Positions 3,880 to 44,222 of a stretch of 64,000 nt of DNA are shown here, one piece after another. Under the pieces are notes generated by a model. The model was given only the letters and a program-made list of their open reading frames with translations, was not told the origin of the DNA and ran no database searches. The number at the start of each line of letters is the position of its first letter. Position 1 is the stretch's first letter. The DNA comes from Paludibacteraceae bacterium (GTDB lineage: Bacteria; Bacteroidota; Bacteroidia; Bacteroidales; Paludibacteraceae), in assembly GCA_017450435.1 (NCBI GenBank), contig JAFSTO010000032.1, forward strand, positions 10,420-74,419, read 5' to 3'. A program made the position numbers and the translations under genes.

Positions 3880-3885
3880 AATACA

Positions 3886-4563: not shown

Positions 4564-4630
4564 GACGGAAACATGTAGAAGGTGGTCGTACTCAACAACG
4601 GAAAACCAACAACTTAAAAACGGAAAGCGC

Positions 4631-18920: not shown

Positions 18921-18960
18921 TCCGTCATTACGTTATTCCGTTATTCCGTTATTCCGTCAC
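18921..18960 (-). repeat. five 8-nt periodic units (+ strand TCCGTCAT TACGTTAT TCCGTTAT TCCGTTAT TCCGTCAC) between the 966-aa gene stop and the beta-barrel start
   Basis: Read directly. The tract fills the whole 36-nt gap and runs into the TGA stop at 18957-18959. Confidence 0.65.
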
Positions 18961-21857: not shown

Positions 21858-24800
21858 CGAATGATTTTTTCTGTTAATATACCACGCCGAAGAATATAGA
21901 TACCCGGTGAGGTCGGTTCAGATATTTGTATGCCTGACAGGTTATAGTATATCTGCTGTGTTCCTTGCTCTTGTATTGGCATAGGCTGTTGGGTGGTGCT
22001 TGGGTAGAAGGGACAAGTGAGTGACTGTCTGCCGTCGGCTTCGGTCAGCAGAGCCTGATAGTAATCGCCGGGACGGAACGTTTCCTGCTCATAGAGCCAC
22101 GAGCGCTCTTCCACATCCATCGGTTCGCCGTTGCGATACCAACGGAATGCAACGAAGTCGTAACCACCATTGTAGTCCTTGTTCATTACAAAGAGAATGT
22201 CATTCCAACGTTGTGCTATGACACCGGCGGGGTAGAGTACGCAGAAGTTCACTTGCTCTTCATGCGAGCCGCAGATATCGTGATTTGTTCTGATGGTAAG
22301 ACTATAGCAACCGGCTTTCGGCGCGTCAGGCAATGGCAGGATGATAGAACCGTCTTGCAGCGAAGAAATGACAGTGTCGGTAAAACCGGCAATTTTGGCT
22401 TCAGCGGAAAAAGTAACGACGAAGGCAGCCAACTCGCCTTCGGTAACGGTGATGGGGATGTCTATCGCTTTGCTGTCGCATAGTTCACCAAGGTCGTCAA
22501 GTGCCTGCCACGTAGCGCAGTCGGTGCACTCTATTGGTGTAAGCAGTTCGAAACTGACCTCGTAACTGATGTCACCGCAGATGGGGTCTGTGGTGCTGAC
22601 AGTGAGCGTATATCTGCCGGGCTCGGGTGAGGCGGTGACGGGTATCAGGAGGCTGTCTCCTATTAGCGTGAGTCCGCTGATAGAGACGAAACCTGCCGCT
22701 TCGGCTTCGGCGGAGAAACGTACGTCAAATGTCTGCACTTCGCCTGCAGTCACATCCACGGGGATAGATAGTGCGGTGAGGCTGCAGAACGAACCAAGGC
22801 TGCTGACGGTCTGCCACTCAGCGCAATCGGTACAAGCCTTGAGCGTGAGCAACTCGAAGCTGATATCGTAGCCCACCTCGCCGCAGATGCTGTCAGCTGT
22901 GAACAGCCGCAGACTATACTTGCCGGGCTCAGGCGAAACGTTAACCGGAATCCGGATGCTGTCTGCTGTAAGCGTGAGTCCGCTCATAGAGACGAAGCCT
23001 GCTGCTTCTGCCTCGGCGGAGAAGCGCACGCTAAAAGTATCAATCTCGCCGGATATGACACTCACCGGAACAACTATCTCCGTCAGGCTGCAGAACGAAC
23101 CAAGGTCGGTCACCGTTTCCCATACCGGACATTCTTTGCAAGCCTCTGCCACAACGGTGATATCTTCCGTCATTTGTATCACGGGGTAGAACGTCATTGA
23201 GCGAATGGCTATGTGTTGCGTGCTGTGGCAGGCAAGGGCTACAATGCGCAGTTCGGGTTCGGCTCCGGCGTTATAATCTTCGGGATACGGCATCACCGGC
23301 ACGGTGTAGTTGATGCTCAGTGTCAGTCCGCCGGTGCCGTTAGGCAGTGCTGTCAGCGGACTGATGCTGTCGCCTGCGATGAAGAGCAGTTTGGGTGCTA
23401 CGCTGTTGTTCTCTGATGCGAAGAGTGTGATGCGCCAGCGGTAGGTAGCGCCGGGGATGAGGTTATTCATCTGCCTGTTCCATAGCAGTACGCTGTCACC
23501 TTCCTGCACCGGCAGGTCGGTAGTGTCGGTCCATGTGACAAGTGAAGCGCCGCGACTGCCGTGCTCCGAGCTGTAAGTGACGGACGAAGAGGGGCTGACG
23601 GTGAGGGTGCGCTCCGTGGAGTCGGCAAGGAGCACGCCGTCGGCGTACCAGCGGAATGGCTTGGTGCCAACGGCTTGCAGAGTGATGGTGTCACCGGTGC
23701 ATATACGTCGCTTAGAACGGTCGCTCGTCTCGAACACGCTGACGTAGATAGAGTCCGGCAGTACGTCGCAACCCTCCTTATGAACGGCACTGACAGTGTA
23801 CATACCGCCGTCGACTGACGTGAGTGGGGCTATGAAAGGCGCAGGGTCGTCAAAACCAAAGTCGCCATGAGGACCATGCCATACGATATTCTCATACCCG
23901 TCGCCGCCGGTCAGACTAAGACGGAGAGTGTCACCAACGTAGTAGATGTTCTCGCCGGAGTGGGCAAACAAGGATATGTGTCCGAAGTTGGAGAAGAAGC
24001 CGTATGAGCATGCGCCGCCGCCGTTATCGAGTATGCCGAGGTGAAAGACACCTTTGTTGTTGGTTATGTTGAACGACTGGTAGTTATACGCAAGTGTGAG
24101 GTTGGCGCATGAGCAGTATGACCAAGTGCTGTCGCCTGCCACCGGACGAAACGAAGCGGCGGGCAGTTCGTAAGGCGAATCGTTGACAATAAAACCGTCG
24201 ATGTTCTCAGTACGCGTCAGTATAGTCACCTTAGCCTCTCTTTCCGACAGTGCCGGTACGTAGTTCACCTCCTGCGAGCCGGAGCAGTTGAGCGACGGGA
24301 GGATGGTGCCGCTCAGCTCGTTGCCGCCCTCGTTGGCTGTGAGGTGGAAAAGGATGAACGGAGAATTGTCGTCTGAGTAGAAGAGTGTGGCAACGATGTT
24401 GTTCAGTGGCACCTCGCGCGGGGCACCGGGAGCAATGTTCACAGAGGTGACGTTCACCCCGTCGGTGGTGTAGTTGACGGTGGTGGCTGAGTCAATGGCG
24501 TAGAGGTAAGCGTACTCGTGGTTGTTGCTGTTGTTGGCGGGCAGTATGTATCTGCTGCCAGCAAGGTCCACGGGAACTAACTGTTCGCCAATGAGGTCCT
24601 TGTCATTTCCCGTTGTGGCAGAGTCGTCAGACGTGTTGACGGCTACTGGTTTGTCGGCAGTGACAATAGTGCCGCCAAGGTGCTCGTTAGCGGGAGTGTT
24701 GGCTGTGCGTGAACGCAAGGCATAGCTCTCACCGCGGTTTAGGGTGACGGTGACGGTGCCGGGAGTGGCGTTAACGTTGGTAGCTACCGGACAGTCGATA

Positions 24801-25309
24801 GTAACGGTAGTGTTGTCCTCTGTTGCAACCACCTCTATCGAAGCGTATGCTCCGTCGGTGTGGTTGCAGGCGTGACGCCACTGCTGGGGTACAACGAAAT
24901 GTGTGCCTAACCCGTGGGCACCCTTGAGGGCATAAACCTCAGAGTTAGGTGCAGTGGTGGCATAGTAGGCGGTGATATCGGCATCGGAGGTGATGAGAAT
25001 GCCGGTGTTGTGGACTTGTCCGTCGGCGCGGGTCTCAATGTTCTGCTTATAATTGTTCTGATTGCGAAGCGAGAAGGTGAAGGTGCTGTGCGCATTGACG
25101 CGCCGGGCGGCAAGCAGTGTTCTTCCCGCTGCCGGCTGCGTGATACTGACTGTGGCGGCTTCGTCGTAGGCTACTATAACGAGGTTGATGTTGTCAGGAG
25201 TGTGGCTCGTTGTGAGGTAAGGTGCGGCGAACCAAAAACTGCGGTCAACCTGCGCATGAGTAACCACCGCTACAAGCATAAACAGTAATATATGGAAGAC
25301 TCTTTTCAT
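21854..25309 (-). CDS. giant secreted surface protein, paralog A (IgGFc-binding-like N-terminal domain, Ig-like units, 3 tandem ~102-aa repeats, shared C-terminal module, T9SS type-A-like tail)
   Basis: SPI signal MKRVFHILLFMLVAVVTHAQ. Blocks FWFAAPYL, ITAYYA, SIEVVATEDNT, LGGTIVTADKPVAVN, DLIGEQLVP. Tail IYYNLSGIQISEPTSPGIYILRRGILTEKIIR. Confidence 0.6.
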   Translation of the reverse strand: MKRVFHILLFMLVAVVTHAQVDRSFWFAAPYLTTSHTPDNINLVIVAYDEAATVSITQPAAGRTLLAARRVNAHSTFTFSLRNQNNYKQNIETRADGQVHNTGILITSDADITAYYATTAPNSEVYALKGAHGLGTHFVVPQQWRHACNHTDGAYASIEVVATEDNTTVTIDCPVATNVNATPGTVTVTLNRGESYALRSRTANTPANEHLGGTIVTADKPVAVNTSDDSATTGNDKDLIGEQLVPVDLAGSRYILPANNSNNHEYAYLYAIDSATTVNYTTDGVNVTSVNIAPGAPREVPLNNIVATLFYSDDNSPFILFHLTANEGGNELSGTILPSLNCSGSQEVNYVPALSEREAKVTILTRTENIDGFIVNDSPYELPAASFRPVAGDSTWSYCSCANLTLAYNYQSFNITNNKGVFHLGILDNGGGACSYGFFSNFGHISLFAHSGENIYYVGDTLRLSLTGGDGYENIVWHGPHGDFGFDDPAPFIAPLTSVDGGMYTVSAVHKEGCDVLPDSIYVSVFETSDRSKRRICTGDTITLQAVGTKPFRWYADGVLLADSTERTLTVSPSSSVTYSSEHGSRGASLVTWTDTTDLPVQEGDSVLLWNRQMNNLIPGATYRWRITLFASENNSVAPKLLFIAGDSISPLTALPNGTGGLTLSINYTVPVMPYPEDYNAGAEPELRIVALACHSTQHIAIRSMTFYPVIQMTEDITVVAEACKECPVWETVTDLGSFCSLTEIVVPVSVISGEIDTFSVRFSAEAEAAGFVSMSGLTLTADSIRIPVNVSPEPGKYSLRLFTADSICGEVGYDISFELLTLKACTDCAEWQTVSSLGSFCSLTALSIPVDVTAGEVQTFDVRFSAEAEAAGFVSISGLTLIGDSLLIPVTASPEPGRYTLTVSTTDPICGDISYEVSFELLTPIECTDCATWQALDDLGELCDSKAIDIPITVTEGELAAFVVTFSAEAKIAGFTDTVISSLQDGSIILPLPDAPKAGCYSLTIRTNHDICGSHEEQVNFCVLYPAGVIAQRWNDILFVMNKDYNGGYDFVAFRWYRNGEPMDVEERSWLYEQETFRPGDYYQALLTEADGRQSLTCPFYPSTTQQPMPIQEQGTQQIYYNLSGIQISEPTSPGIYILRRGILTEKIIR
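22229..23143 (-). repeat. three tandem in-frame coding repeats (periods 309 and 306 nt) inside the 1151-aa gene
   Basis: aa 723-825, 826-927 and 928-1027 each read C-x2-C...W...LG.(F)C...IP(V/I).V..GE...F.V.FSAEA..AGF...PEPG.Y(S/T)L...D.ICG...F.(L)L. Copies 1 and 2 are also visibly similar at DNA level. The antisense ORFs 22569-22871 and 22887-23189 mirror each other. Confidence 0.85.
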
Positions 25310-25316
25310 GAATTAT

Positions 25317-25376
25317 GTTCATTGTCACTTAGTACTTAGTCACTTGGTACTTAGTCACTTGGTTACTTGGTCACTT
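25317..25376 (-). repeat. eight 7-8-nt periodic units (+ strand GTTCATT GTCACTT AGTACTT AGTCACTT GGTACTT AGTCACTT GGTTACTT GGTCACTT) in the leader of the 1151-aa gene
   Basis: Read directly. The tract spans the entire 61-nt gap and overlaps the stop and last codon of the 751-aa gene. Confidence 0.7.
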
Positions 25377-27626
25377 GACTTGTTGTCCTAATACGTTATA
25401 CACTTTCTCGTTTACAAGGATATACAGCTGTCCGTTAATGAATATCTTTTTGACAGATACGTTCCCCTCAACCTCGTTTATGCCTGTGGGTGTTCCCCAT
25501 TCGTCTTCATCGTCGGGTTGTGGCATTTCGCGCCATGATGGCACCCATGCCACTTCGTCTGACCACAGTGACTCACGGTACTCGGTGCTACCCTCGGCAG
25601 GACGAGCCTTGAGGGCTACATTATAGTCGAAGTACGGCAAGATACTTTGTGCGCGGAGGATAGTGTCGCCGGAAAGAATATTGTGTGTCATTACCTGAAA
25701 GCGGTCAGCATCAGTTACGCGCACCAGATACGATGCTGCGGAGGAAACGGCGTTGAAGGTGATAACGCCCTCATCCGTCACTTCCGTGATGACGGGAGTG
25801 TCAAGACGGGGAAGGATAACGACACAAGTGGTGCCGTAGTACCATGTGAAGGGAAAGTTCAGCACCCAGCGGCTGCGCCAAGTGGTGTCGTTCTGCTGCA
25901 CCTGCCACTCGACGTGGTCGTTATACGTTATCACGTCGCCTTTGAAGAACTGTCCTTTAGCCGAAGGCTTGAGACGAAGAAGCATGAGGGTATCCTGCAG
26001 AAAACCCGTCACCTTCTCGAAATAATCGTCCACCGGTTTACCGCATATAGTCATAGCAGAAGTCTTCAGTCCTTCGCCTCTCCATTTGGCCTCTGCAGCG
26101 CCGCCAAGGACAAAGCGTATATTTCCTTCCTCTGTCGTTTCTGCCGTCATCGTTACACCTCCGTCGTCTGACGACACGAACTTTGAACAGAGTGTGGAGC
26201 GGTCAATGGCAGAAACCGGCACCTCGGATGGCAGATACCATAGGTAAGCCGGCGATTCGGGAGAAGGTGTGAAATGATTGGCGGAATTGATGGCGCGGGC
26301 ATAGACGGTATAGGTGTAGGTGGCAGTGGGCAGGAACGGGATGCTGTCGCCGTTATTGAGCGTTACATCCAGCATCAACAGTTCGCCGCGCCAGACGGTG
26401 ATGCGGTAGCGGTCGGCACCTTCTATCTCCTCAGCAAGGTGAAAATGTTTGCCGGCATCAATGGAAAGGATTTCCGGAGCTTCCAATCCCGGACAACGTG
26501 TGCCGTAGGTGTAGCGGAAGGTGAAGTTGCCGTAGGCGTTGCTGTTGTTCGATGTGCGATACGCGACTGTGCCGCTGTATGTTATAGGTTCACCTATAGC
26601 GGGACGTTTGGTTGTGTCGCGTAAGTGCAGGGTAAACAGACTGCTGCGGTCGCCCGAATAGACGCGCTCGAAGTAGGCGTCTGCCAAGCCTTTGCCGACG
26701 GAGAACTCTGCAAGGTCAGCGCCTGACATGCCATTGGCGCGGAAGTTGGTGCCGGCGTCGCCGGAGATGCTGATGTTCACGTCGCCTAAGGAGTCGGTCT
26801 CCCAGGTGAGGTAGGCGTATGAGTTGGCGTCTTTGCCGAAGCGGGAGTTGCAAAGCTCTGAGTTTCCTACGCTAACCGGCACCGCCGTGCGTTGCCATAC
26901 GACGGGGTCAGAGGCGGGCGAATCAACCTTGCCACCGGCGTGAGCGGTGACCGTAACAGTGTAACCGGCTGTGACGTAGGGCGTGAAGCCGCTAATCGCA
27001 CCACCGGGTTGGATGGTCTGAGAGTGCTTGAGCACGCCGTCAAGGTAAATTTTTACTATGTAAGAGTCGGCACCCTCTACTGCTTCAAAGATTGGAACAC
27101 CGGCGTCTGTCACTTCTGTCAGAACGGGCGTGGTAAGATACACGCATGTACCGCCGTAGGTGTATGAAAACGACACCGATGCCGTGTACGCATTGGTGTT
27201 CTTGGCGGTCTTCCACTCAAGGTTGGCACTCTCGCTGTAGCGGTTGAAGGTGATTTTCTTGCCAAGGACGGGCACCGAGTCGGTTCGCGGAGTGTAGATT
27301 ATCTGTTTCACCCCCGCCACGTTCTTCGGCGAGCGTGTAAACCACACTTCCATCGAGTCGCCGTCGTACTTAAACCCCTTGGGGTTCATACCATTGGCAC
27401 GCCATATTGTCAGTGCCTCATTGTCGTCGTAGGCTTTGATGGTGAATATCACTCGTCCCTGCTCGTCCGTCTCTGCCGTAAGATAGGCGTAAGAAGCTTC
27501 GTTTGAACCGAAACGCATCTCGCACACCTCCGATGGCACATTATCAGCAGCAGGCTCGCTGTCTTGACTATGGAGAACGAGGCTATACGACAAGAGTACA
27601 GACAATAAGAGCAGTGTTCGTTTCAT
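25371..27626 (-). CDS. secreted repeat protein: 3 x (Cys-bracketed ~120-aa module + FN3-like unit) plus a short T9SS-like tail
   Basis: SPI signal MKRTLLLLSVLLSYSLVLHSQ. Modules at aa 35-161, 259-378 and 480-601. FN3-like linkers such as TPVLTEVTDAGVPIFEAVEGADSYIVKIY. Acidic linker DDEDEW, then KKIFINGQLYILVNEKVYNVLGQQVK. Confidence 0.65.
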   Translation of the reverse strand: MKRTLLLLSVLLSYSLVLHSQDSEPAADNVPSEVCEMRFGSNEASYAYLTAETDEQGRVIFTIKAYDDNEALTIWRANGMNPKGFKYDGDSMEVWFTRSPKNVAGVKQIIYTPRTDSVPVLGKKITFNRYSESANLEWKTAKNTNAYTASVSFSYTYGGTCVYLTTPVLTEVTDAGVPIFEAVEGADSYIVKIYLDGVLKHSQTIQPGGAISGFTPYVTAGYTVTVTAHAGGKVDSPASDPVVWQRTAVPVSVGNSELCNSRFGKDANSYAYLTWETDSLGDVNISISGDAGTNFRANGMSGADLAEFSVGKGLADAYFERVYSGDRSSLFTLHLRDTTKRPAIGEPITYSGTVAYRTSNNSNAYGNFTFRYTYGTRCPGLEAPEILSIDAGKHFHLAEEIEGADRYRITVWRGELLMLDVTLNNGDSIPFLPTATYTYTVYARAINSANHFTPSPESPAYLWYLPSEVPVSAIDRSTLCSKFVSSDDGGVTMTAETTEEGNIRFVLGGAAEAKWRGEGLKTSAMTICGKPVDDYFEKVTGFLQDTLMLLRLKPSAKGQFFKGDVITYNDHVEWQVQQNDTTWRSRWVLNFPFTWYYGTTCVVILPRLDTPVITEVTDEGVITFNAVSSAASYLVRVTDADRFQVMTHNILSGDTILRAQSILPYFDYNVALKARPAEGSTEYRESLWSDEVAWVPSWREMPQPDDEDEWGTPTGINEVEGNVSVKKIFINGQLYILVNEKVYNVLGQQVK

Positions 27627-27689
27627 GGCAGTATGGTGTTTCTTAGAAGATGATCAAACTGACCGTCTCTATCTTCGGGCGGCACGTTG

Positions 27690-30068
27690 TCACCGAGCGG
27701 TTGGCTCAATCTTGACAGCATTGAGAATAGTAGCACCCTCTATTGGTTTTAGTACAATAATTATACCATTTCCGCCATTTACATCAATTTTCTGGACAAT
27801 ATCTTTTGCCCGGTATGTTTGCAGTGTTTCTTCAGGTGAGAAAACTTGTTCGCCGTTGATTGTTATGCTCATCTTTCTGCCGTTAAACCCGGTGTCGAGC
27901 GCCTTATTGCCGAGGTTATATACCGACATCTCTTGTTCTCCCACAGTCTCTAATTCCGCCAAGCGTAGGGTTACTGTATATTGTCCGTCGGGAACGTCGG
28001 CGCGGAGCTCATTGATACCCAATCGTGCTGTTTGGTAAACAGGTTCGTCGCCCGCTGCTCCGAGGATAGTGACATCAGATGCCGGGAGTGGTCCGTGTTC
28101 GGTCTTGCGAACGTATGGAGTGCCGCCATCAATAGTGATTAGGCCGGATGTAGTGTCCGGCACCCACAGGTTGCCATTGTTGTCGGTGAAGTAGCGGTTG
28201 CTACCGAGAAGAACACATAGCGGCCATTGCTGCGGCTCGGGCATCCGGAGCGCCTCTTCCATCTTCTGCTGTGCCTGACGACGGAGAGCTTCAGTGCCTG
28301 CTATTGTTGATTGGTAGAAGTAGTATGTGGCTTTCGGGCAGCGATTGGTAGTAACCAGTCCTTTGAGATTCATGTGAGGCACGGCTCCGCCACGGCTTTC
28401 CGAGTGGAAGTCGTTGAGGTTCCACGCTGTGCCGCCGGCAACCAAGTCGGTGGACAAAAGAAACTGAAGGTAATGTTTATGATAGAGCATGGCATAGTCA
28501 ACAGTGTAGTCGAACTTCAGCGGGTTGTCCGCCCTCAGCCGAACGTCGCAGTCTGCCCCATACTCGCTAATCAGCATCGGCCGGTTGCTGCTCTGGCGTC
28601 GTATTCGCTCCACTTTTGCATCGAGGTCTTCTATCGTGCCGCTGTACCAGCCCGAGTAGATGTTATGTCCTATCACATCTGCACATGTGTCAAGCCCTGC
28701 TTCGTGATACTCTCGGAAATAGTCATGAATGGCAGCGAAGGTGTACCGCTCCGGGTCGAGTTCGTGCAGATGACGGTTGAGTTGCTGTGAGAGTCGGTTG
28801 ACGTTCATCACATACTCCCAGTGGCGCTGCCACATGCCTTTCTGATACTTGAAGGGCGGTCGGAGCAGCACCTCGTTCATATACCCCCACATTATAACAG
28901 ACGGGTGGTTGCGGTTCTGCCAAACCATCTCCTCCTCCATCATAAGGCAGTTATTTGTGAAGGCTTCCGATTCGGTGATGGCATTAACAACGGGAATCTC
29001 TACGGAGCACAGTATGCCGAGCGAGTCCAGTAGGTGCATCACGAGCGGGTCCTGCGGGTAATGACTAACGCGGAGGAAATTGCCGCCCATGTCCTTCAAC
29101 AGCTGCATGTCAAGTCTGTGCACTGAGTCGGGCACAGCCCATCCCATGCCGCTGTAACACTGGTGTCGGTTGGTGCCGATGAGCTTGAGCGGCTTGCCGT
29201 TGAGGACGAAGAGTCCCTGTTCGTCGAACGAGTAGTAACGGAGACCGATTTCCTGCTCCACCTGGTCAATCACGCGGCCGTCTTCGCCAAGCAGCCGTGT
29301 AGTGAGGGTGTAGAGAGTAGGGCTGTCAGGCGACCACAGACGCGGGTTATCTACATTGAAGGTCTGAACGTCTGAGTAATCGGCAGACCGGGGATCCTCA
29401 GGACGTGCATTGACATTATCTGCAGCTAATTGGTCATTCCCTATCTTGTCGGAAATGGCTACTCGTTTGCCGTTGAGCCGGTGCTCCACACGCATACCTT
29501 CGTTGGCGTTTGTCAGGCGTGTGGTGATGCGTACCTGAGCCGTTCGGTAGTTGACGGCCGGCGTTTCCACCGTCAAGCCGTTGGTGCCGTAGAATGTGGT
29601 GCTTATATGCGATGGTGCTGTGCGGAGAAGGTAGCAGTCGCGGTAGGGACCACCAAAAAAGGTGAAGTCGGCTGAGAGAGGAGGTATATCAGCGTTGTGT
29701 GCATTGGTAATACGCATCGTGACCGTGTTATCCTCTCCGAAACGTACAAAAGGTGTCACATCGAAAGAAAACGCTGTATATCCGCCGGCGTGATACCCGG
29801 CGTCGTTTCCGTTCACGCTGAGCCATACCTCTTGGTTGGCGCCTAACGAGACGAAGGTGACGTTACTCTCTGCCCATGAAGCAGGAATGGCAACCGTCTC
29901 TGTAAAGACGTGCTCCGTACGCTCGTAGCCCGGCACGGTGTCTGTCGCGTCATGGGCATTCCATGTCTGACGCGCAAATAGTGGCAGACGCTCACGGCAG
30001 TCGATATGTGAGGTGCAGCTCGATAAAAGAATTGCTGCACATGAAAGAATAAATAGTGTTCGCTTCAT
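27690..30068 (-). CDS. glycoside hydrolase family 2 lipoprotein with a C-terminal malectin-like domain
   Basis: Lipobox ILLSSC. GH2 blocks VSLGANQEVWLSVNGNDAGYHAGGYTAFSFDVT, GTNRHQCY, NFLRVSHYPQDP, NHPSVIMWGYMNEV (acid/base NE), LISEYGAD (nucleophile E). Malectin-like VYQTARLGINELRADVPDGQYTVTLRLAELE...NAVKIE. Confidence 0.85.
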   Translation of the reverse strand: MKRTLFILSCAAILLSSCTSHIDCRERLPLFARQTWNAHDATDTVPGYERTEHVFTETVAIPASWAESNVTFVSLGANQEVWLSVNGNDAGYHAGGYTAFSFDVTPFVRFGEDNTVTMRITNAHNADIPPLSADFTFFGGPYRDCYLLRTAPSHISTTFYGTNGLTVETPAVNYRTAQVRITTRLTNANEGMRVEHRLNGKRVAISDKIGNDQLAADNVNARPEDPRSADYSDVQTFNVDNPRLWSPDSPTLYTLTTRLLGEDGRVIDQVEQEIGLRYYSFDEQGLFVLNGKPLKLIGTNRHQCYSGMGWAVPDSVHRLDMQLLKDMGGNFLRVSHYPQDPLVMHLLDSLGILCSVEIPVVNAITESEAFTNNCLMMEEEMVWQNRNHPSVIMWGYMNEVLLRPPFKYQKGMWQRHWEYVMNVNRLSQQLNRHLHELDPERYTFAAIHDYFREYHEAGLDTCADVIGHNIYSGWYSGTIEDLDAKVERIRRQSSNRPMLISEYGADCDVRLRADNPLKFDYTVDYAMLYHKHYLQFLLSTDLVAGGTAWNLNDFHSESRGGAVPHMNLKGLVTTNRCPKATYYFYQSTIAGTEALRRQAQQKMEEALRMPEPQQWPLCVLLGSNRYFTDNNGNLWVPDTTSGLITIDGGTPYVRKTEHGPLPASDVTILGAAGDEPVYQTARLGINELRADVPDGQYTVTLRLAELETVGEQEMSVYNLGNKALDTGFNGRKMSITINGEQVFSPEETLQTYRAKDIVQKIDVNGGNGIIIVLKPIEGATILNAVKIEPTAR

Positions 30069-30325
30069 GGGGGAGATATTTTTTAGTGGTTTATGTTCGT
30101 ATAATAGTAATTATAGTGCACCACTACCTGCTCCTGTGCCGGTGCCACCCGGGGTGAACTCATCTCCACCATCGTTGTTATCTGTTCCGGTACTGACGTT
30201 GAGCATGACGGACGGTGATAAGTAGCGGAAGATATCAGTTTGTGGAATGGTGTATATTCGTTTTGCAGTCATTGTGTTATTCTTTATAGTTATTAGACGT
30301 TGAGTTTGTTTTATGGCTACAGACC

Positions 30326-33300
30326 TTATTCTGCCTTAATGCCGAGAACGGTGTAGATAGTCCCGTTTTTGCGAATAAGAAGTTGTCCGTTTTGGAAGAA
30401 CTTCTCAGCCTGAACGGGTTTTATTGTCTGTTCAAGCGAGGTGGCTATTGTTGTTTGGTCGCTACGCATCACTATTCGTGCACGTACGTTGCCGGGTAGC
30501 TGTTGTTCGAACTTGAAATATGCTCGGAACCCGCGCATTGACGAACCGTTGTTGTTCTGCAATAGGTAGTTGTTGGCGCCGAGGAAGTAATAATCGCTTG
30601 GAATCTGATAAGGTCCGTAGATACCAACCATCGTGGCGGCTGTGCCTTGACGATTTTCTATCGGTGCTGCAGCATTAACAACAACATTGCTAATTACCGG
30701 AATGACAGCGTCTTGCGATGGGCGCATCACGTATGGCATACCGGCTTCAAGGTGGTTGACGTAGTCAAACTCAAGGAAGAGCGACTCTGCTCCTTTCCAG
30801 TAAGAACCTACGAGTTTGCCAAGACGGTAGGCGTCGCCGAAAGTGGCTTTCAGTTGGCTGTCTGACATGTCAAACGGCAGACAAAGGGTGTACCAATCGG
30901 TGCCGGCAAGGAACGAGCGGTCAAGTGTGGCAACAACGGTGGCGTTGTTGAACTCGGTGATGTTCGCGCTGTTGTCGCTGTTCTCCGTGAGGTTCATAAC
31001 GTAAGTACCACCCGTGCCATAAACCTCAAACTCATAGAAACTCATAAACCATTTGCTTGTACCTTCTCCGGCTCTGTTGGCTATTTTTACATAGCGGGTG
31101 AAGGGTTGCAATTCTGACAGGTCAATAGTCTGGGTCGTTCCTTCAGTAAACTTATCTCCTGTATATTCGATAATGTCAAACCAATTGCTGCCGTCAAAAC
31201 TGCCAAGCAGTACAATGCCGTTGTAGTTTGGATAGTGTTGCCAGGTAATCTTGACCGACTCTAAAGTGTAAGCCTTGCCAAGGTCCACTTGCCACCAGTT
31301 GGTTTCAGGGTCTAATAGTTCTCCGTTATTCTCATAGTTACCCCACTTGGTTGTGGTATTGCCGTCCACTGCTTTCTCTGCGGTGTAATTTCCTTCGGTT
31401 CTACCTGCGAGTGCGGTCTTACCGAGTGCGAGGTTGGTGTCCTCTTCGGGCGCTGCTCCTCCTTCGGTAGTGAAGCTGACGGTCATGTAGTTGTCAGACT
31501 CGTTGCCGGCCTGGTCAATGGCATAAACCCTGATGGTGTAAGCCTTGCCCGACAACAGTCCGTCCACGGTGAAGCTGCCGTCTGTGGCAACATAGTCGCC
31601 GGTCTTGTCGCCCTTGAGCCGGTATCCCGCAATAGTGGTGTTATCTGTGGCAGAGACGCTGAGCACAACTGAGTTGGTAGTAACATCGCTGTATGTGGCG
31701 CTAACCATAACCGGCGCCTCACTATCGGCTGAGAGCTCACCATAGACGTAAATCTCACCGACTCTCAAACCATAAGTCTCATTTGCCTCTGTTGAGAAGA
31801 AACGAATATAACGTACTTCTTTATTGTTAGTCGTGTTGGTGTACCAATGGTCTTTCCTATCTCGTCCGCCGCCAGCTTGGTCGTAGCTGTATGCTGTTAC
31901 CCAATTGGTTTTGTCAGAAGAGAAATCAAGATGATATTTTCTTGAAGAACTACCGCCGGTAAAGCAAACTTGTATATAATCAACATCGTATATTTTATTG
32001 AGGTCAATGATTATCCAAGCATCAAAAGTTTCTTGATTAGGGTTAGTTTGTGCACTATAACCTTGCCAATAGTTATTAGCAATTCCATCCACCACTAATG
32101 ACGGGGAATTAGCAGCATAACCATCTATTGCACCTCGCGAGCCTTCTGTTTCTGCTCCTACGGAAATAAGCTGTGTGTCATCATATACAAAAATCTCAAT
32201 ATTGTCGCTCTTCTCGTCAGCTTGGTCTTTCTGTGCAGTGGCGGTGATGGTTACAAGACCTTTCTTTGTCGCGGTGAACACGCCGTCGGTTATCGAACCT
32301 GCATCAGCCGGACTGATGGTGTATTCGGTGGCAACATCCATCGCTGTACCTTTCTGGTTAAGGGCATTGATAGTTAAGGTAATATCTTCGCCTACTTTAG
32401 CTATATCCTGTGCCTCCACAGAGAATGAAGTTAATACATCAGGCTGATTGCAAACGGTGCCATATATATATTCTGTAAGTACGGGATTACGCCAAGCATC
32501 AGTATTATCAGTTGTTTTCCAACGATATATGCCGTTATAGGTTATTATCTCTCCGAGTGCAATGTTTTTTCCTGTTTTCTTGCGCAGTTGGTATGTAGTC
32601 GCACCTGTTGTATAGATAGCGTCAAAGAACAATGCGGCACTTACATTGCCTACTTTGAATTTATCTGCACCATCAAATGCGTTGCCTCGCCAAGAGGCTC
32701 CGTCACCGCTGATTGAGATATTGATATTGCCGTCTTCGTCTGTCTCCCATGTATAATATGCCAACCCTGTAGTATTATTGTTTGATATTATTTCTTTAGT
32801 GCAATACGTGTTTTCCGGTAAGTTTTCCTCTGCTACAGATTGGTCAGATAGAGTCCAAGTTCCTTCTGCTGCTTCAGATAAATCATCTTCAATATATGCT
32901 ACAAGGGTTGTACGGAATGTACCACCTTTCTTAAACGGGCGTGTAAGTTCGTCACCTGATTCTACATCTTGTGCAAAGAGAGGTGTTGTGTCATCATCAT
33001 CGTACATCGTCAGCTCATATCGTGTGGCATCGGTTACTTCATCGAACGACACCACACCAGCGTTTGATATAGCGAAATTAGTAGGAGTTGGAATGGTGCT
33101 TGCAACAGCTTCAAATGATATAGAAGAAAACCTAATCTGATTAGATGGATTAACATAGTACTCTCCTGCATTAAGAATTACTTCAACTGTTGCTGAATTA
33201 GGCGTGAAATGTGTTGTTGTTATATCTCCCTTTGTGTTTGAAAAACAAAAGTATCGGTCTGTCTTTTGTTCATTGATTCCTAAAGTAATTTTACTTTTGA

Positions 33301-33997
33301 CCGGTATTGAAAATTTTATATAGTGTGTTCCACTTGTTGTAATTTGAACATAAGGGTAATTATCTGTCATAGGTGCATGTGCTTGACTGGTAACAAACTC
33401 AAGTCCGTCTATTGTAGAAACTGTACTGCTTAGATTGCATCGTCCTTTTCCAAAACTTAATGTATAACCCGATTCACCGCCTTGAAGAAGTGGCTCTCCC
33501 GATTCGATAATTTCTATTTGATAGATTCTAATATATTGATTGGATGTATAGAAAAATATTGTACTATTAGTGGTGTTTGTTGTTTCATATTCAACAACAG
33601 TGGCTTCTTTAGCAGTAAAGTTGTGTGAGGTTATATGAGTTTCTGTACTTTCTCCTTCTTTGACTTCACTGATATAAATATATCTATCTGTCTTGCCTCC
33701 GGGTTCATATGTATATACCTTTACTTGTGTACTTGTTGTCTTGCAATCATAACCAATTACACTATTGAAATTGCCATTTGTATTTGATAGAGTTTTATTG
33801 ATATTTGCTACATAGGAAGTATAACTTGTGTTATTTATAGTTTGAGCAGCACTACTCACCGTTCCTGTATACTTCAAATCCCCTGTAAGAGTGCCGGTGG
33901 ATTGGTCAATCAAACGGTAGGTAGTGTCTGCGTAAAGGCTTATGCCACTTGCTAAAGAGATGAAGGTTAGCAGTAGGGGAAGTAAGTAGCGTTTCAT
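30326..33997 (-). CDS. 1223-aa secreted multidomain protein (AT-rich N-terminal modules, FN3-like unit, Cys-bracketed module, Big_2, 2 x discoidin/F5-8 type C, FN3, unknown C-domain, short T9SS-like tail)
   Basis: SPI signal MKRYLLPLLLTFISLASGISLYA. Cys module aa 399-516. Big_2-like aa 520-592. Discoidin blocks VVDGIANNYWQG...WIIIDL and AVDGNTTTKWGN...WWQVDLGKAYTLESVKITW. FN3 aa 758-845. Tail EKFFQNGQLLIRKNGTIYTVLGIKAE. Confidence 0.65.
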   Translation of the reverse strand: MKRYLLPLLLTFISLASGISLYADTTYRLIDQSTGTLTGDLKYTGTVSSAAQTINNTSYTSYVANINKTLSNTNGNFNSVIGYDCKTTSTQVKVYTYEPGGKTDRYIYISEVKEGESTETHITSHNFTAKEATVVEYETTNTTNSTIFFYTSNQYIRIYQIEIIESGEPLLQGGESGYTLSFGKGRCNLSSTVSTIDGLEFVTSQAHAPMTDNYPYVQITTSGTHYIKFSIPVKSKITLGINEQKTDRYFCFSNTKGDITTTHFTPNSATVEVILNAGEYYVNPSNQIRFSSISFEAVASTIPTPTNFAISNAGVVSFDEVTDATRYELTMYDDDDTTPLFAQDVESGDELTRPFKKGGTFRTTLVAYIEDDLSEAAEGTWTLSDQSVAEENLPENTYCTKEIISNNNTTGLAYYTWETDEDGNINISISGDGASWRGNAFDGADKFKVGNVSAALFFDAIYTTGATTYQLRKKTGKNIALGEIITYNGIYRWKTTDNTDAWRNPVLTEYIYGTVCNQPDVLTSFSVEAQDIAKVGEDITLTINALNQKGTAMDVATEYTISPADAGSITDGVFTATKKGLVTITATAQKDQADEKSDNIEIFVYDDTQLISVGAETEGSRGAIDGYAANSPSLVVDGIANNYWQGYSAQTNPNQETFDAWIIIDLNKIYDVDYIQVCFTGGSSSRKYHLDFSSDKTNWVTAYSYDQAGGGRDRKDHWYTNTTNNKEVRYIRFFSTEANETYGLRVGEIYVYGELSADSEAPVMVSATYSDVTTNSVVLSVSATDNTTIAGYRLKGDKTGDYVATDGSFTVDGLLSGKAYTIRVYAIDQAGNESDNYMTVSFTTEGGAAPEEDTNLALGKTALAGRTEGNYTAEKAVDGNTTTKWGNYENNGELLDPETNWWQVDLGKAYTLESVKITWQHYPNYNGIVLLGSFDGSNWFDIIEYTGDKFTEGTTQTIDLSELQPFTRYVKIANRAGEGTSKWFMSFYEFEVYGTGGTYVMNLTENSDNSANITEFNNATVVATLDRSFLAGTDWYTLCLPFDMSDSQLKATFGDAYRLGKLVGSYWKGAESLFLEFDYVNHLEAGMPYVMRPSQDAVIPVISNVVVNAAAPIENRQGTAATMVGIYGPYQIPSDYYFLGANNYLLQNNNGSSMRGFRAYFKFEQQLPGNVRARIVMRSDQTTIATSLEQTIKPVQAEKFFQNGQLLIRKNGTIYTVLGIKAE

Positions 33998-34120
33998 GGT
34001 ATATTGTTTTTATGGGTTATTCAAATCAGGTGGCGGACATATCCGCGGGAAAGGTTATTCGGAAGATGGGAGTCCAAGTTTACTAGTAGCCTAGTATTCT
34101 AGTATTCTGGTTGTCTAATT

Positions 34121-34172
34121 AAAAAAGAAAATTCCTTTCCGCAGCCGGCGGCAGGTGCCGGCTGCGGAAAGG
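34121..34172 (-). terminator. strong intrinsic terminator after the 845-aa gene
   Basis: On the - strand a 16-bp stem CCTTTCCGCAGCCGGC / GCCGGCTGCGGAAAGG (34134-34149 and 34157-34172) with a 7-nt loop is followed by AATTTTCTTTTTT. Confidence 0.8.
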
Positions 34173-34181
34173 GTACGGTGC

Positions 34182-36719
34182 TTAGCGGGCAATACGTCCT
34201 GTAGCATCGTAGAGGTGACCATCAACGGAGATATACAGATGGCCGTTGATGAGGAGTTTCTGCACTTGGTGTTTGTTCTCAATGTTCTCAAAGCCTACAC
34301 TTAATGCAGGGTCAGGCCAATCGTCGCACATGGTGCCATAGACATAGTTATATACGGCGCCGAGTATATAAGCGTTGTTGTTGGTGGCGGTGTACCACTG
34401 CACGTTGCCTTGATATTTGATTTCCATACCTGCTCCGATAAGTGCACCTTCTTTTTTCTGCAAGCGGAAGAGCATGGTGTGGTCTGCTCCTATGAAGTCG
34501 AAGTAGTTGGAAGCCGGTGCCAAACCAACCATGAAATTTGACGGTGTGAGAGGTGTATTAGTGCGGAACTCGGTGCCGTCGCCGCCGCTGATTTCGATAT
34601 ACACATCGCCGTTCGTTGAGGTGTTCCAACTCAGGTAAGCGATATCGCCCGGGTCTTCTCCAATCTGTGTTTGGCACAGCGTGCTTGGTGCAGGCGCGAA
34701 AGGAACGGCCTCAAGAACCCAGTTGAAAGCGTCCGAAGGCTCGGAGTCGGACATACCTGCGGCGCGGGAAGTAACGATAACCTGATAGGTAGTGCTTACA
34801 CGCGGCACGAATCCGATAGGCTGTCCCGGTTGTATGGTAGTAGCATAAACTACGATGTCACCAATCTTAACCTGTACAGTGAAAGACTCTGCGTTGTCTG
34901 CGTTGTCAATGGTAATAACCTGCTCGTCGGAGATAGCCGTTATAACGGGTTTGCTGAGCGAATTGCAGACGGTTCCGTAGGTGTATTCGAGGTGGGTGTT
35001 CTCCTTATATCCGTTGCCTTCTATGACAGTACGCCAGCAGAGTGTGCCGTTATACTCGATAATCTGACCAAGAGGAATGGTCATACCCTGTTTGGGTGAC
35101 ATGCGGTATTCGGTAGCTCCGTCGGATGTCTGAAGGTTGAAGAAGTTGCTTGCCGGTACACCATTGAGGCTGAAGTTGTTTATACCAAGAGCGTCTGCCC
35201 CGCGGAAGTTGGTACCTTCTTCGCCGGTGATGGTAATGACAACATCGTCATCAACAGTCTGGAAAGTAAGGAACATGTGCCAAGGAGTAGGGTCAACACC
35301 GGCAACGTACCAGTCGCCGATGAACTCCTCGGAGCAGTATTCTGAAGTGCCTATTTCAACTTCGCGTCCGGCGAGTGTCCAGTTGTAGCCTTCCGACTCG
35401 TCAGAGTCAATAGCCCCCGGAGCCTGTGCGATAGCAGTAACAACGTAGGTGGAGGCTGCTATGGCAGGGAAGTTAATCTTGTCGCCGCTATGTACGTTCT
35501 CCTGGAAGTAGAATGGTAAGCCGTTGTAATAGATGGTAATCTTGAAGTGGTCAGCGCCGTTGCCTGTGATGGTGATGGTGCTGTCGGCGGAGATAGAAGT
35601 AATAGATGGAGTCTCGAGCCCTCCACATACTGTACCATAGGTGTAGGTGAAGTTATAAGTGTTATAAGCATCACCGTCTTGCGAAGTTACCCATTGCGTT
35701 GTTCCTGAATACTTGATTTGTTCACCCTGTGCAACGCTCATACCGTCTTTAAGACGGAGCTGATAACGTGTGCTGTTCTGCTGGTAGTTAATTTCGAACC
35801 AAACAGAAGCGGGTGCGCTGCCGACTTTGAAGTTGCCTATCCCCTTGAAGGCGTCTGCGGTACGCCAATGAGCGCCGTCGCCGCTGAGGTCGATGTTGAT
35901 ATTGCCGTCATTGTCGGTCTGCCAAGTCATGTAAGCTTCGCTGCCGGCTTTGTTACGTTTGATTTCGTAACCGCAATACTCACTGTTTTCCAATGTGACA
36001 GACTCATCTTCGAGTGCCCATACGACAGGCGCTGTGTAGTCGGAGAAACCGCGTTCGGTGTCGCGTGCTTTGAGTTGGATGTTGTAGTTGCCACCGGAGA
36101 TCAGAGGCCTTGCTATTTTATTACCGCTTTCGATGTATCCCTCTCCGAGGGTGATGCCATTAAGTGTGATGAGGTACATATAGTCCTCGGCGTCTTCAAC
36201 TGCATCAAAGGTAACCGTTCCGTCAGCAGCAACAGCCACGTTCTGCGGTGCCGGGAGAGGGTTGCTACCGCAGGTGCTGCCATAGATGTAGTCGAACTTG
36301 TACTTTGCATAGCAGTTACCGTCTTCAGAGGTCTTCCAAGTAACGTTTTGTTTGGCGTCGAAGTGAATAACAGTGCCGGCAGGAAGCGGTGTGGTTCCAA
36401 TGAACTTGAGAGTCCAGACAGTAGAGTTGTTGGTGTACTGACGCTCGAAATAATCGGTTGTGCTGAGTGTTCCGTCTCCGATGGTAAAGGAGAGAAGTGT
36501 CGCTTTATCCATTCCGGTAGCATCGCGGAAGGCTGTTCCGGCGTCGCCATAGACAGTGATAACCACGTCACCTGCATCGTTGGTCTCCCAACGAAGGAAA
36601 GCTTCGTTGTTTCCGGCTTTCGTACCGAGTCGTGCAGCGCAGAGTGCGGAAGCATCGGCGTAAGCTGTTAGTGTCACTATGCTCAAGAGAGCTGTGATGA
36701 ATAGTTTACTGTGTTTCAT
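34182..36719 (-). CDS. secreted repeat protein: 4 Cys-bracketed ~120-aa modules separated by 3 FN3-like units, plus a short T9SS-like tail
   Basis: SPI signal MKHSKLFITALLSIVTLTAYA. Modules at aa 27-150, 249-365, 462-585 and 682-798. Tail QKLLINGHLYISVDGHLYDATGRIAR. Confidence 0.65.
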   Translation of the reverse strand: MKHSKLFITALLSIVTLTAYADASALCAARLGTKAGNNEAFLRWETNDAGDVVITVYGDAGTAFRDATGMDKATLLSFTIGDGTLSTTDYFERQYTNNSTVWTLKFIGTTPLPAGTVIHFDAKQNVTWKTSEDGNCYAKYKFDYIYGSTCGSNPLPAPQNVAVAADGTVTFDAVEDAEDYMYLITLNGITLGEGYIESGNKIARPLISGGNYNIQLKARDTERGFSDYTAPVVWALEDESVTLENSEYCGYEIKRNKAGSEAYMTWQTDNDGNINIDLSGDGAHWRTADAFKGIGNFKVGSAPASVWFEINYQQNSTRYQLRLKDGMSVAQGEQIKYSGTTQWVTSQDGDAYNTYNFTYTYGTVCGGLETPSITSISADSTITITGNGADHFKITIYYNGLPFYFQENVHSGDKINFPAIAASTYVVTAIAQAPGAIDSDESEGYNWTLAGREVEIGTSEYCSEEFIGDWYVAGVDPTPWHMFLTFQTVDDDVVITITGEEGTNFRGADALGINNFSLNGVPASNFFNLQTSDGATEYRMSPKQGMTIPLGQIIEYNGTLCWRTVIEGNGYKENTHLEYTYGTVCNSLSKPVITAISDEQVITIDNADNAESFTVQVKIGDIVVYATTIQPGQPIGFVPRVSTTYQVIVTSRAAGMSDSEPSDAFNWVLEAVPFAPAPSTLCQTQIGEDPGDIAYLSWNTSTNGDVYIEISGGDGTEFRTNTPLTPSNFMVGLAPASNYFDFIGADHTMLFRLQKKEGALIGAGMEIKYQGNVQWYTATNNNAYILGAVYNYVYGTMCDDWPDPALSVGFENIENKHQVQKLLINGHLYISVDGHLYDATGRIAR

Positions 36720-36788: not shown

Positions 36789-38096
36789 TTAGTTCAGCTT
36801 GAAGTAACTGAGGTTGATTGCTCCGTTTATTACATGAAAACGGATATAGTGTTTACCGGAGACGGGGAAATCGTCCACAGTGAAAGTCGTCCACGTGTTC
36901 ATTGAACCGGTCTTTGGCAGTGAAACCATCTTGACGGGGTCACCGTCCACGTAGATAGCGAGTTGGGTATCAATCAGAGTTGCATATCGCAAGGAGATAT
37001 TGTTTTTTGGTGATGTGGCATCGATCTGATATTCGACCCAGCGGTCCATTGCGAGGTTGTACAGCATCAGTTTGCCGCCTTCTGCATCGGTACTGTTGGT
37101 AACAGCCGGAAAGATGTTGAAGTCGGTGTACCACTGTGCCGGTATGGGGTTGGTGGCGTCAATGCATACCGACTTGTCAAGCGACGACATGCCGGCATAT
37201 ATCTCTCCAAGGGGCGTCAACTCAATAGGGTCTTGTTTGGTGAGCAGTTGGTTGTAGGGTTTGGAGTTAAGCGAGTTGTTGCTGCGGGGGATGAACCAGG
37301 CATAACGCTCCACCAGTTCTTCCTGTTCGAAGTAATTTATCACATCGCTCATATAACTCTTCTGTACATCCACTCCGCTGATGTCCCATGCGCAGAACTC
37401 CGTCATCCATATTGGTTTGTCGTACTTGCGGAACTTCTCGACAAAGCCTTTCACCGCCGAGCAACTGGTCATATAGCAGTGTATGGGAATGAAGTCGATG
37501 TCGTCGATGCTGATACCGGGCTGGCGGAAGAACTCGTCAAGCCATTTGACGGGGTCGGAGTAACCGGCGAGTGTGCCGTAGTTCATGGCAGGAGCTCCGA
37601 GTTTGAGGTTCAGTTCCTTGGCGAGTGCCACCACATCCGGCCACAACTCCGCCGCTTTCTGCGGAGTCATGTTAGCTTGGTCGGTGAGGTTAGGCTCGTT
37701 GAACCCTAACAGATAACCTGTGTTAGGGTGCCCCTGTACGAAGGCGCGGATGCGGTCCTTGCTATAGTTGCCGTTCCAGCACATGGGGCAGTAGTCGATG
37801 TTGTTCTGCTCCAAGAAAAGCTGCACGTTGTCAGGACCGGACGGCGTGTTACCCCAGTTGTAGTGCCAGCAGATGAAGTTGGAGAGGATAAAAGCGTCAG
37901 TCACGTTTTTTATACCGAACGACACTCCCCGCTTGTGGCTTCCTGGCATAGAGGCAACAGTCGTAGTGCCGGCAAGTGATTCGGCTTCCGGCTTATTGAC
38001 TGTCGGTCCCGTGGGCTGCTGCACCGGTTCGGTGCAGCCCCACAGGAGTGAAAGCAGAGTGATAACTGACAGTGTGAAATACTTACCGGTATTCAT
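36789..38096 (-). CDS. GH128-type (Glyco_hydro_cc, PF11790-like) glycoside hydrolase lipoprotein with a C-terminal CBM-like beta-sandwich
   Basis: Lipobox LLWGC. Family blocks HKRGVSF, WHYNWG, CPMCWN, LLGFNEPNLTDQANMTP, WLDEFF, IPIHCY, KPIWMTEFCAW, VERYAWF. The C-terminal ~120 aa resemble CBM6/35 (weak call). Confidence 0.8.
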   Translation of the reverse strand: MNTGKYFTLSVITLLSLLWGCTEPVQQPTGPTVNKPEAESLAGTTTVASMPGSHKRGVSFGIKNVTDAFILSNFICWHYNWGNTPSGPDNVQLFLEQNNIDYCPMCWNGNYSKDRIRAFVQGHPNTGYLLGFNEPNLTDQANMTPQKAAELWPDVVALAKELNLKLGAPAMNYGTLAGYSDPVKWLDEFFRQPGISIDDIDFIPIHCYMTSCSAVKGFVEKFRKYDKPIWMTEFCAWDISGVDVQKSYMSDVINYFEQEELVERYAWFIPRSNNSLNSKPYNQLLTKQDPIELTPLGEIYAGMSSLDKSVCIDATNPIPAQWYTDFNIFPAVTNSTDAEGGKLMLYNLAMDRWVEYQIDATSPKNNISLRYATLIDTQLAIYVDGDPVKMVSLPKTGSMNTWTTFTVDDFPVSGKHYIRFHVINGAINLSYFKLN

Positions 38097-44170: not shown

Positions 44171-44191
44171 GGTAGCGGTATAATGTTTGTA

Positions 44192-44222
44192 CAAAATTAC
44201 AATTTAAAAACTTTTGCCGCAA
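44192..44222 (-). promoter_or_regulatory. Bacteroidetes-type promoter of the susC-led operon
   Basis: On the - strand, CTTGCGG (TTG = complement of 44220-44222), 20 nt spacer, TAATTTTG (complement of 44192-44199), 21 nt before the ATG at 44170. Confidence 0.6.

Follow-up and report, generated by a model that had tools for sequence, protein, structure and literature searches.

Eight copies of a Cys-bracketed module in three neighbouring proteins

The stretch of DNA analysed in this work, hereafter referred to as the window, comprises 64,000 nucleotides of contig JAFSTO010000032.1 (GenBank assembly GCA_017450435.1, positions 10,420 to 74,419 of the forward strand) from a Paludibacteraceae metagenome-assembled genome (MAG); all window coordinates given below are counted from its first nucleotide. 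Three neighbouring genes on its minus strand code for proteins in which a module of about 120 amino acids (aa), bracketed by Cys residues, occurs eight times. These proteins were designated A (751 aa, open reading frame 25371-27626), B (1223 aa, 30326-33997), and C (845 aa, 34182-36719). A and C are labelled by NCBI as 'hypothetical protein' (IJS13_03285 and IJS13_03305) and B as 'discoidin domain-containing protein'.

Protein A harbours three copies of the module, A1 (27144..27524, aa 35-161; domain E value 1.3e-38), A2 (26493..26852, aa 259-378; 1.2e-43), and A3 (25824..26189, aa 480-601; 8.5e-38). A single copy, B1, was found in protein B (32450..32803, aa 399-516; 1.4e-43), and four in protein C, namely C1 (36270..36641, aa 27-150; 1.3e-40), C2 (35625..35975, aa 249-365; 2.6e-45), C3 (34965..35336, aa 462-585; 3.7e-41), and C4 (34326..34676, aa 682-798; 3.8e-44). 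All of them read on the minus strand. The amino acid ranges given for these copies in an original prediction, made from the letters of the window, translated exactly to the corresponding nucleotide ranges, with a module length of 117-127 aa and Cys as the first and the last residue in 8 out of 8 copies. The end-to-end alignment of the eight copies displayed 43% mean column identity, and nine positions were invariant (C1, T19, R38, F61, G87, I90, Y116, G117, and C120). A hidden Markov model (HMM) built from the eight copies scored each of them at E values of about 1e-38 to 1e-45, and a six-frame scan of the window with this HMM recovered the same eight copies and no ninth one. The repetition of this pattern is far beyond chance.

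Identity of the window copies to their positional orthologues elsewhere ranged from 51 to 89%, as compared to 27-48% to their best paralogues in the window. Copy A3 represents a divergent subtype that is kept as the last module in A-like proteins, with positional orthologues in the family members P0024, P0004, and P0008. Since orthologue identity exceeds paralogue identity, the alignments indicate that the copies are ancient and individually maintained and did not arise by a recent tandem expansion.

FN3-like units of about 86 aa are located between the modules, seven of them in the window and all on the minus strand. Protein A contains two spacers (26883..27143, aa 162-248, and 26226..26492, aa 379-467) and a C-terminal variant (25536..25814, aa 605-697), protein B one unit ahead of B1 (32843..33100, aa 300-385), and protein C three spacers (36006..36269, aa 151-238; 35367..35624, aa 366-451; and 34707..34964, aa 586-671). 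Family-wide, 207 of 232 inter-module gaps fell in the range of 90-120 aa (median 99). Single spacer units gave no fn3 match in Pfam at E values up to 10, and the spacer profile searched against the PDB retrieved FN3 domains at sub-significant levels (IL-4R, E 0.065; fibronectin, E 0.35). A profile of 199 spacer units aligned with the domain of the same proteins that matches Pfam fn3 at an hhalign probability of 91% (E 1e-6, 86 columns). This profile alignment indicates that the spacers are remote FN3 homologues, for which the term 'FN3-like' is fair; they differ from Pfam fn3 (PF00041) in that the window units fall below the Pfam thresholds, and they form a divergent subfamily with the conserved pattern P...A..Y...G...Y.V...A...S..S...W. 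The flanking FN3-like units of about 85 aa described in the original prediction are thus borne out by the seven units of the window, by the regular spacing in the family, and by the profile alignment.

Size and conservation of the module family

The search of other genomes with an HMM from the eight copies, which had been proposed beforehand, uncovered a family. When 1.84 billion cluster representatives were searched exhaustively with the HMM, 201 proteins were obtained at E values up to 1e-3, 160 of them below 1e-10 and 72 below 1e-30, with one to nine copies of the module per protein. A word-indexed search with the module profile gave a fragment of protein A as its sole match, and full-length C used as query retrieved 20 relatives.

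Conservation and C-terminal tails were analysed in 171 family sequences, holding 406 modules. Cys was present at both ends in 343 of 359 full-length modules, so that the terminal Cys pair already pointed out from the window is a hallmark of the family; judging from this conservation, the two residues probably form a disulfide tying the N- and C-terminal strands. Over 377 modules, the most conserved positions were C1 (94%), T19 (96%), G23 (92%), F/W/Y37 (98%), R38 (95%), F61 (86%), G87 (85%), I90 (88%), Y114 (88%), Y116 (95%), G117 (98%), and C120 (96%), in agreement with the motif proposed from the eight copies, and W17, Y60, W/Y98, N105, and Y/W107 were also frequent. The conserved residues include the aromatic W17, F/W37, Y60, F61, W/Y98, Y/W107, Y114, and Y116 and the polar T19, R38, and N105.

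Most family members are singletons known from metagenomes only. The few named ones belong to Paludibacteraceae, Prevotellaceae, and other Bacteroidales MAGs, and a profile search of genome contigs with four close copies gave three loci, the taxonomic range being poorly sampled. The family is genuine, rare, and previously unannotated and, as far as sampled, is confined to uncultured Bacteroidales. The N-terminal part (about 120 aa) of two members, P0048 and P0053, consists of a different Cys-bracketed segment of about 115 aa ('YCGVTSPNENFTFSL...DWSATCG') that the module HMM missed and that could be related to the module at a great distance.

Searches for a known family or fold

Sequence searches were performed against Pfam-A (2025) and NCBIfam (2026), and the PDB used for Foldseek included entries up to April 2026. 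Proteins A and C gave no Pfam or NCBIfam match at E values below 0.1, and in protein B none was obtained over the module. When 42 isolated modules were searched against both libraries at E values up to 10, the matches were scattered as by chance and no family recurred. Searches of PDB sequences with profiles of 8 and 42 sequences gave a best E value of 0.5. The module could thus be assigned to no named family by Pfam, NCBIfam, or PDB sequence searches, in agreement with the original prediction, in which it was placed in no named CBM or Pfam family.

Two copies were modelled in isolation with AlphaFold2 (AF2). The first model, of A2 with the eight-sequence alignment, reached a pLDDT of 89.8 and a pTM of 0.83, and the second, of C2 with the 42-sequence alignment, a pLDDT of 94.2 and a pTM of 0.87. 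Both are all-beta, with eight to nine strands and no helices, and their first and last strands reach the terminal Cys residues. The module is therefore predicted, with confidence as to fold class, to be a discrete all-beta domain. Its independent folding is supported by the modelling of two isolated copies, and the Cys pair sharply sets its boundaries.

The check by Foldseek on AlphaFold models, suggested together with the module itself, was carried out on both models and provided no convincing match to any solved fold: in the PDB, nothing appeared below an E value of 0.01 and no match reached a TM score of 0.5. The matches listed were generic Ig-like sandwiches (GAE appendage domain, MALT1 Ig3, an archaeal pilin, and the Afp13 fibre foot), and a search of BFVD with the second model again gave generic Ig-like sandwiches with TM scores below 0.5. 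Pfam models of carbohydrate-binding modules (CBMs), PDB profiles, and Foldseek gave no support for membership in an existing CBM family, and no matching new CBM family surfaced in literature searches.

A single module stood out in these searches. The second module of P0011 matched Calycin_like (PF13944) over nearly its full length (E 3.4e-5, 24.6 bits, with a gathering score of 30) and, weakly, PDB entry 3rwx (E 0.18). At E values up to 10, PF13944 was not matched by any of the other 41 modules, nor by any of the eight window copies, and the 42-sequence family profile retrieved neither 3rwx nor any calycin from the PDB; lipocalins and calycins were also absent from the top 50 Foldseek matches of either model. 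The Calycin_like identity was dropped, given that neither the other modules nor the family profile nor the fold search reproduced the P0011 match. A divergent FN3 identity of the module itself was rejected as well (hhalign probability below 3%), and so was an enzymatic reading resembling lytic polysaccharide monooxygenases, prompted by weak Foldseek matches to AA17, because the module has neither an N-terminal His nor an invariant acidic residue.

Architecture and domain partners of the module proteins

In proteins A and C, a signal peptide is followed by modules that strictly alternate with FN3-like units, and a short tail closes the chain. As no other part is present, the function of the two proteins must reside in the module. 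Protein B, together with many relatives, carries F5/8-type-C domains.

The three proteins end in a putative sorting signal on the minus strand, located at 25374..25451 in A (KKIFINGQLYILVNEKVYNVLGQQVK), 34185..34262 in C (QKLLINGHLYISVDGHLYDATGRIAR), and 30329..30409 in B (AEKFFQNGQLLIRKNGTIYTVLGIKAE). This motif of about 25 aa, K-x3-NGQLxIxRxGxxYxxxGxxV, closes 60 of the 171 family proteins, A, B, and C included, and stands where other members have Por_Secre_tail, the domain of type IX secretion system (T9SS) cargo. Por_Secre_tail (PF18962/TIGR04183) was present in 15 of 78 family proteins, a likeness to T9SS cargo, whereas A, B, and C differ from such cargo in ending in a motif that no model recognises; the tail may represent a minimal or an alternative signal for sorting. 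NCBI names one relative 'T9SS type A sorting domain-containing protein'. The N-termini of the window proteins (MKRTLLLLSVLLSYSLVLHSQ, MKRYLLPLLLTFISLASGISLYA, and MKHSKLFITALLSIVTLTAYA), read by eye, showed no canonical lipobox. Lipidation of the first Cys of C was rejected on this ground and because the same Cys is also conserved in internal copies.

Partner domains were scanned with Pfam in 49 sampled members and in the 29 longest remaining ones (78 proteins in all), the latter being represented by the best 25 of 31 families. The fn3 domain was found in 12 of 49 sampled and 22 of 29 longest proteins, F5_F8_type_C_2 in 9 and 10, Por_Secre_tail in 11 and 4, Flg_new_2 in 5 and 8, and Big_2 in 3 and 1, respectively. 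Further partners among the 78 were PKD-like (7) and MBG_3 (3) domains, and a GspA/SrpA SigLec-like domain, found once. Sugar-binding domains fused in family proteins amounted to F5/8-type-C in about 18-19 of the 78, one CBM56 (CBM_56 in Pfam), and one CBM26.

Two regions of protein B are unannotated. The N-terminal one (33113-33928, minus strand, aa 24-295, about 270 aa) is also present in P0029. The other, a C-terminal domain of about 190 aa (30413-30970, minus strand, aa ~1010-1195), lies just before the tail and displays the pattern WYTLCLPFD...G.PYL..P; an LCLPF-like motif occurs in 21 of the 171 family proteins.

Gene neighbourhood and related loci

On the minus strand of the window, the gene order is SusC, SusD, a Big_2 protein, a GH128-like glycosidase, C, B, GH2, A, two IgGFc_binding proteins, and a 297-aa protein. 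The core of a polysaccharide utilization locus (PUL) lies upstream of C and B and includes SusC (40991-44194), SusD (39244-40899), and the Big_2 surface protein (38159-39181). The GH128-like glycosidase (Glyco_hydro_cc, 36789..38096), which contains a CBM6/35 domain, is directly upstream of C. A SusR-family regulator (DUF6377, NF058541, E 1e-97) is coded on the plus strand (44398-45960), divergent from the SusC gene. The GH2 enzyme between B and A (27690..30068) has a C-terminal malectin domain and showed its best NCBIfam similarity, far below the cut-offs, to beta-glucuronidase or beta-galactosidase models; the same pairing of GH2 and malectin with a module protein was found in another Paludibacteraceae MAG (locus L001, 2401-4707). 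Downstream of A are the two IgGFc_binding proteins (21854-25309 and 18957-21857) and the 297-aa protein (18027-18920). The remainder of the window holds housekeeping genes.

Adjacency to SusC/SusD and glycosidases, by which surface glycan-binding proteins (SGBPs) are recognised, was found for B and C and recurs in two related loci, L011 and L012. The latter shows synteny to the window (Big_2, GH128-like, C-like, and B-like genes), and L011 contains SusC/D, Big_2, three GH16, and a GH128-like gene. Genes for a GH128-like enzyme, two GH16, an MFS transporter, and GH30 were found in L007/L008, for GH16, MFS, and GH3 in L009, and for GH3 and MFS in L010. The GH128-like gene adjoins module proteins in L007, L011, and L012. 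In L003 (Bacteroidales UBA3653), a SusR-type regulator (3049-4584) is situated about 4 kb upstream of the module protein and divergent from it. Altogether, genes for carbohydrate-active enzymes (CAZymes) of the beta-glucan type (GH16, GH128-like, GH3, or GH30) were present in 6 of 10 independent loci, often with SusC/D.

A different arrangement surrounds protein A. The next genes after that of an A-like protein invariably code for two orthologous IgGFc_binding (PF17517) proteins, in the window as well as in L004, L005/L006, L009, and L010. These two proteins are paralogous, of about 900-1150 aa, and each of them is orthologous across loci at 42-53% identity. The cassette continues in L004 and L005 with an OmpA protein and then a protein of about 270 aa homologous to the 297-aa one of the window, where no OmpA-family protein belongs to the cassette. 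The small protein (259-297 aa) ends in a C-R-C motif and had no Pfam or NCBIfam match. The cassette spans 18027-27626 (minus strand) in the window, 336-11538 in L004, 10001-21079 in L005, 10001-18785 in L009, and 10001-16319 in L010, and adjoins glycan-use genes in three of five A-type loci, the window (GH2, SusC/D), and L009 and L010 (GH3, MFS, GH16). It may constitute an uncharacterised surface or T9SS-associated apparatus. The original placement of the copies within a PUL is thus only partly right: it is clear for B and C, downstream of SusC, SusD, and the GH128-like gene, and A, one gene further on, belongs to this separate conserved cassette.

Possible function of the module

The reading that we favour, with a probability of about one half, is that the module is a new non-catalytic glycan-binding module of multivalent surface proteins, with beta-1,3-, beta-1,6-, or mixed-linkage glucan as the likeliest ligand. 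Glycan binding by the module, as deduced from sequence and gene context, is probable and is the best supported function because of the recurring GH16, GH128-like, GH3, GH30, and SusC/D neighbours, the sugar-binding partner domains, and the multivalent design. Proteins A, B, and C carry signal peptides for export through Sec, and the C-terminal signal at the position of Por_Secre_tail would direct them to the cell surface. There, the binding modules would be displayed on FN3-like stalks close to the transporter SusC/D and to the GH128-like glycosidase, in keeping with the gene neighbourhood observed. Three to four non-identical modules per chain would confer avidity for polymeric beta-glucan, such as that of fungal or yeast walls or of cereals, and different copies may recognise different epitopes, since their divergence is ancient and position-specific.

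Several observations weigh against this reading. Some or all of the conserved aromatic residues may be core residues. No solved CBM, laminarin-binding modules included, was among the Foldseek matches listed, and the enzymes of the window PUL are the GH128-like one and GH2 alone. The tail of A, B, and C matches neither Por_Secre_tail nor the NCBIfam T9SS models. Among the families listed for the 78 proteins, there was no GH, lyase, esterase, or peptidase domain, which implies that the module is not a classical enzyme-appended CBM and lives in large non-catalytic surface proteins. Furthermore, in L005/L006 the cassette of protein A is found among unrelated genes, with no CAZyme genes and outside any PUL; because the A-type cassette occurs there without CAZyme genes, the role at the cell surface may be a different one, at least for the A-type copies.

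These last observations lead to the question of whether the module proteins could be adhesins, binding proteins or cells as part of T9SS-type fibrils and acting in co-aggregation, in attachment to host or mucus, or in docking to the IgGFc_binding proteins, with a secondary link to the PUL. The constant association of A-like proteins with two IgGFc_binding proteins, and sometimes with OmpA and the protein of about 270 aa, would fit such a role, as would the cassette outside a PUL and the lack of a catalytic domain among the families listed for the 78 members. The giant multi-domain members carry adhesin-type domains (MBG_3, GspA/SrpA SigLec-like, Flg_new_2, Big, and PKD), and in structure the module comes closest to Ig-like domains of the adhesion or appendage type and to a phage-like fibre foot. 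However, the beta-glucan CAZyme genes in 6 of 10 independent loci, the glycan-use genes next to the cassette in three of five A-type loci, and the fusion to sugar-binding types (CBM32-like, CBM56, and CBM26) argue for a glycan ligand, and we consider the adhesin role doubtful. A purely structural role, in which the module would be a beta-sandwich serving as stalk or spacer, as in the Ig-like domains of the SusE/F type, and the ligand would be bound by other domains, e.g., F5/8-type-C, is consistent with the generic Ig-like sandwiches that were all that Foldseek yielded and with the F5/8-type-C domains of B and many relatives, which could be the true binders; yet A, C, and their orthologues would then be left with no functional domain, the FN3-like units already supply spacing, and the conservation of T19 (96%) and R38 (95%), together with the orthologue identity of 51-89%, argues for a constrained functional site, which makes this role unlikely. 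Finally, it is quite improbable that the module belongs, as a remote member, to a family already named, either Calycin_like or a CAZy CBM family missing from Pfam and the PDB. The P0011 match (E 3.4e-5) and its weak similarity to 3rwx speak for the former, but that match stayed under the gathering score and was reproduced by 0 of the other 41 modules and neither by the family profile nor by Foldseek, and the literature searches brought up no matching new CBM family.

Extending the favoured glycan-binding reading, it is possible, although tentative, that the module founds a new family binding beta-1,3/1,6-glucan or a related polymer, carried on T9SS-delivered 'beads' of modules and FN3-like units, which together with the cassette of IgGFc_binding, OmpA, and small proteins would form a new surface apparatus capturing insoluble glucan or fungal walls in uncultured gut Bacteroidales, beyond the lipoprotein model of SGBPs.

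Relation to known glycan-binding systems and significance

A surface protein encoded in Christiangramia forsetii's laminarin PUL contains four repeats of a then-unclassified CBM that bind laminarin (bioRxiv 10.1101/2023.09.07.556657). This 'CBMxx' (Zuhlke et al.) resembles the window modules in that both are divergent copies of a small unclassified beta-sandwich in a non-catalytic surface protein, coded in a Bacteroidota beta-glucan locus and accompanied by Ig-like or FN3-like domains. There is no match in sequence or fold, and neither the crystal structure of the CBMxx complex nor PDB 7KV7, the structures described or cited in that paper, was among the Foldseek or HMM matches listed. In the C. 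forsetii lipoprotein the CBMs stand in tandem, whereas the window modules are Cys-bracketed, alternate with FN3-like units, and belong to proteins with T9SS-type C-termini. Binding has been demonstrated for CBMxx and is inferred for the window modules.

SusE/SusF and SGBP-B of Bacteroides PULs are likewise PUL-encoded, non-catalytic, multi-domain beta-sandwich proteins, coded downstream of SusC/D, that bind their target glycan multivalently, and the window proteins share this multivalent arrangement. In contrast, the Bacteroides proteins are lipoproteins with a lipidated N-terminal Cys, and the signal peptides of A, B, and C are ordinary ones, combined with a C-terminal motif of the sorting type; no sequence or structural homology to the window modules was detected. 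As to Calycin_like, the single sub-threshold match of P0011 is the only likeness, and the other 41 modules differ in not matching it. The module is most likely a CBM-like module of SGBP-type surface proteins rather than part of a new kind of system.

Should the module not bind glycans, it would still be an unannotated domain that deserves a Pfam entry, of modest general interest. The module would gain in interest if binding were shown or if the cassette of A and the IgGFc_binding proteins turned out to be a distinct surface apparatus. If binding holds true, the compact, disulfide-capped module of about 120 aa might serve as a beta-glucan probe. Confirmed binding would define a new CBM family and would allow about 200 large 'hypothetical' surface proteins of uncultured Bacteroidales from rumen and gut to be annotated as glycan-capture proteins. 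It would also mean that some PULs use multivalent binders of the T9SS type, which are not lipoproteins, instead of lipoproteins like SusE/F.

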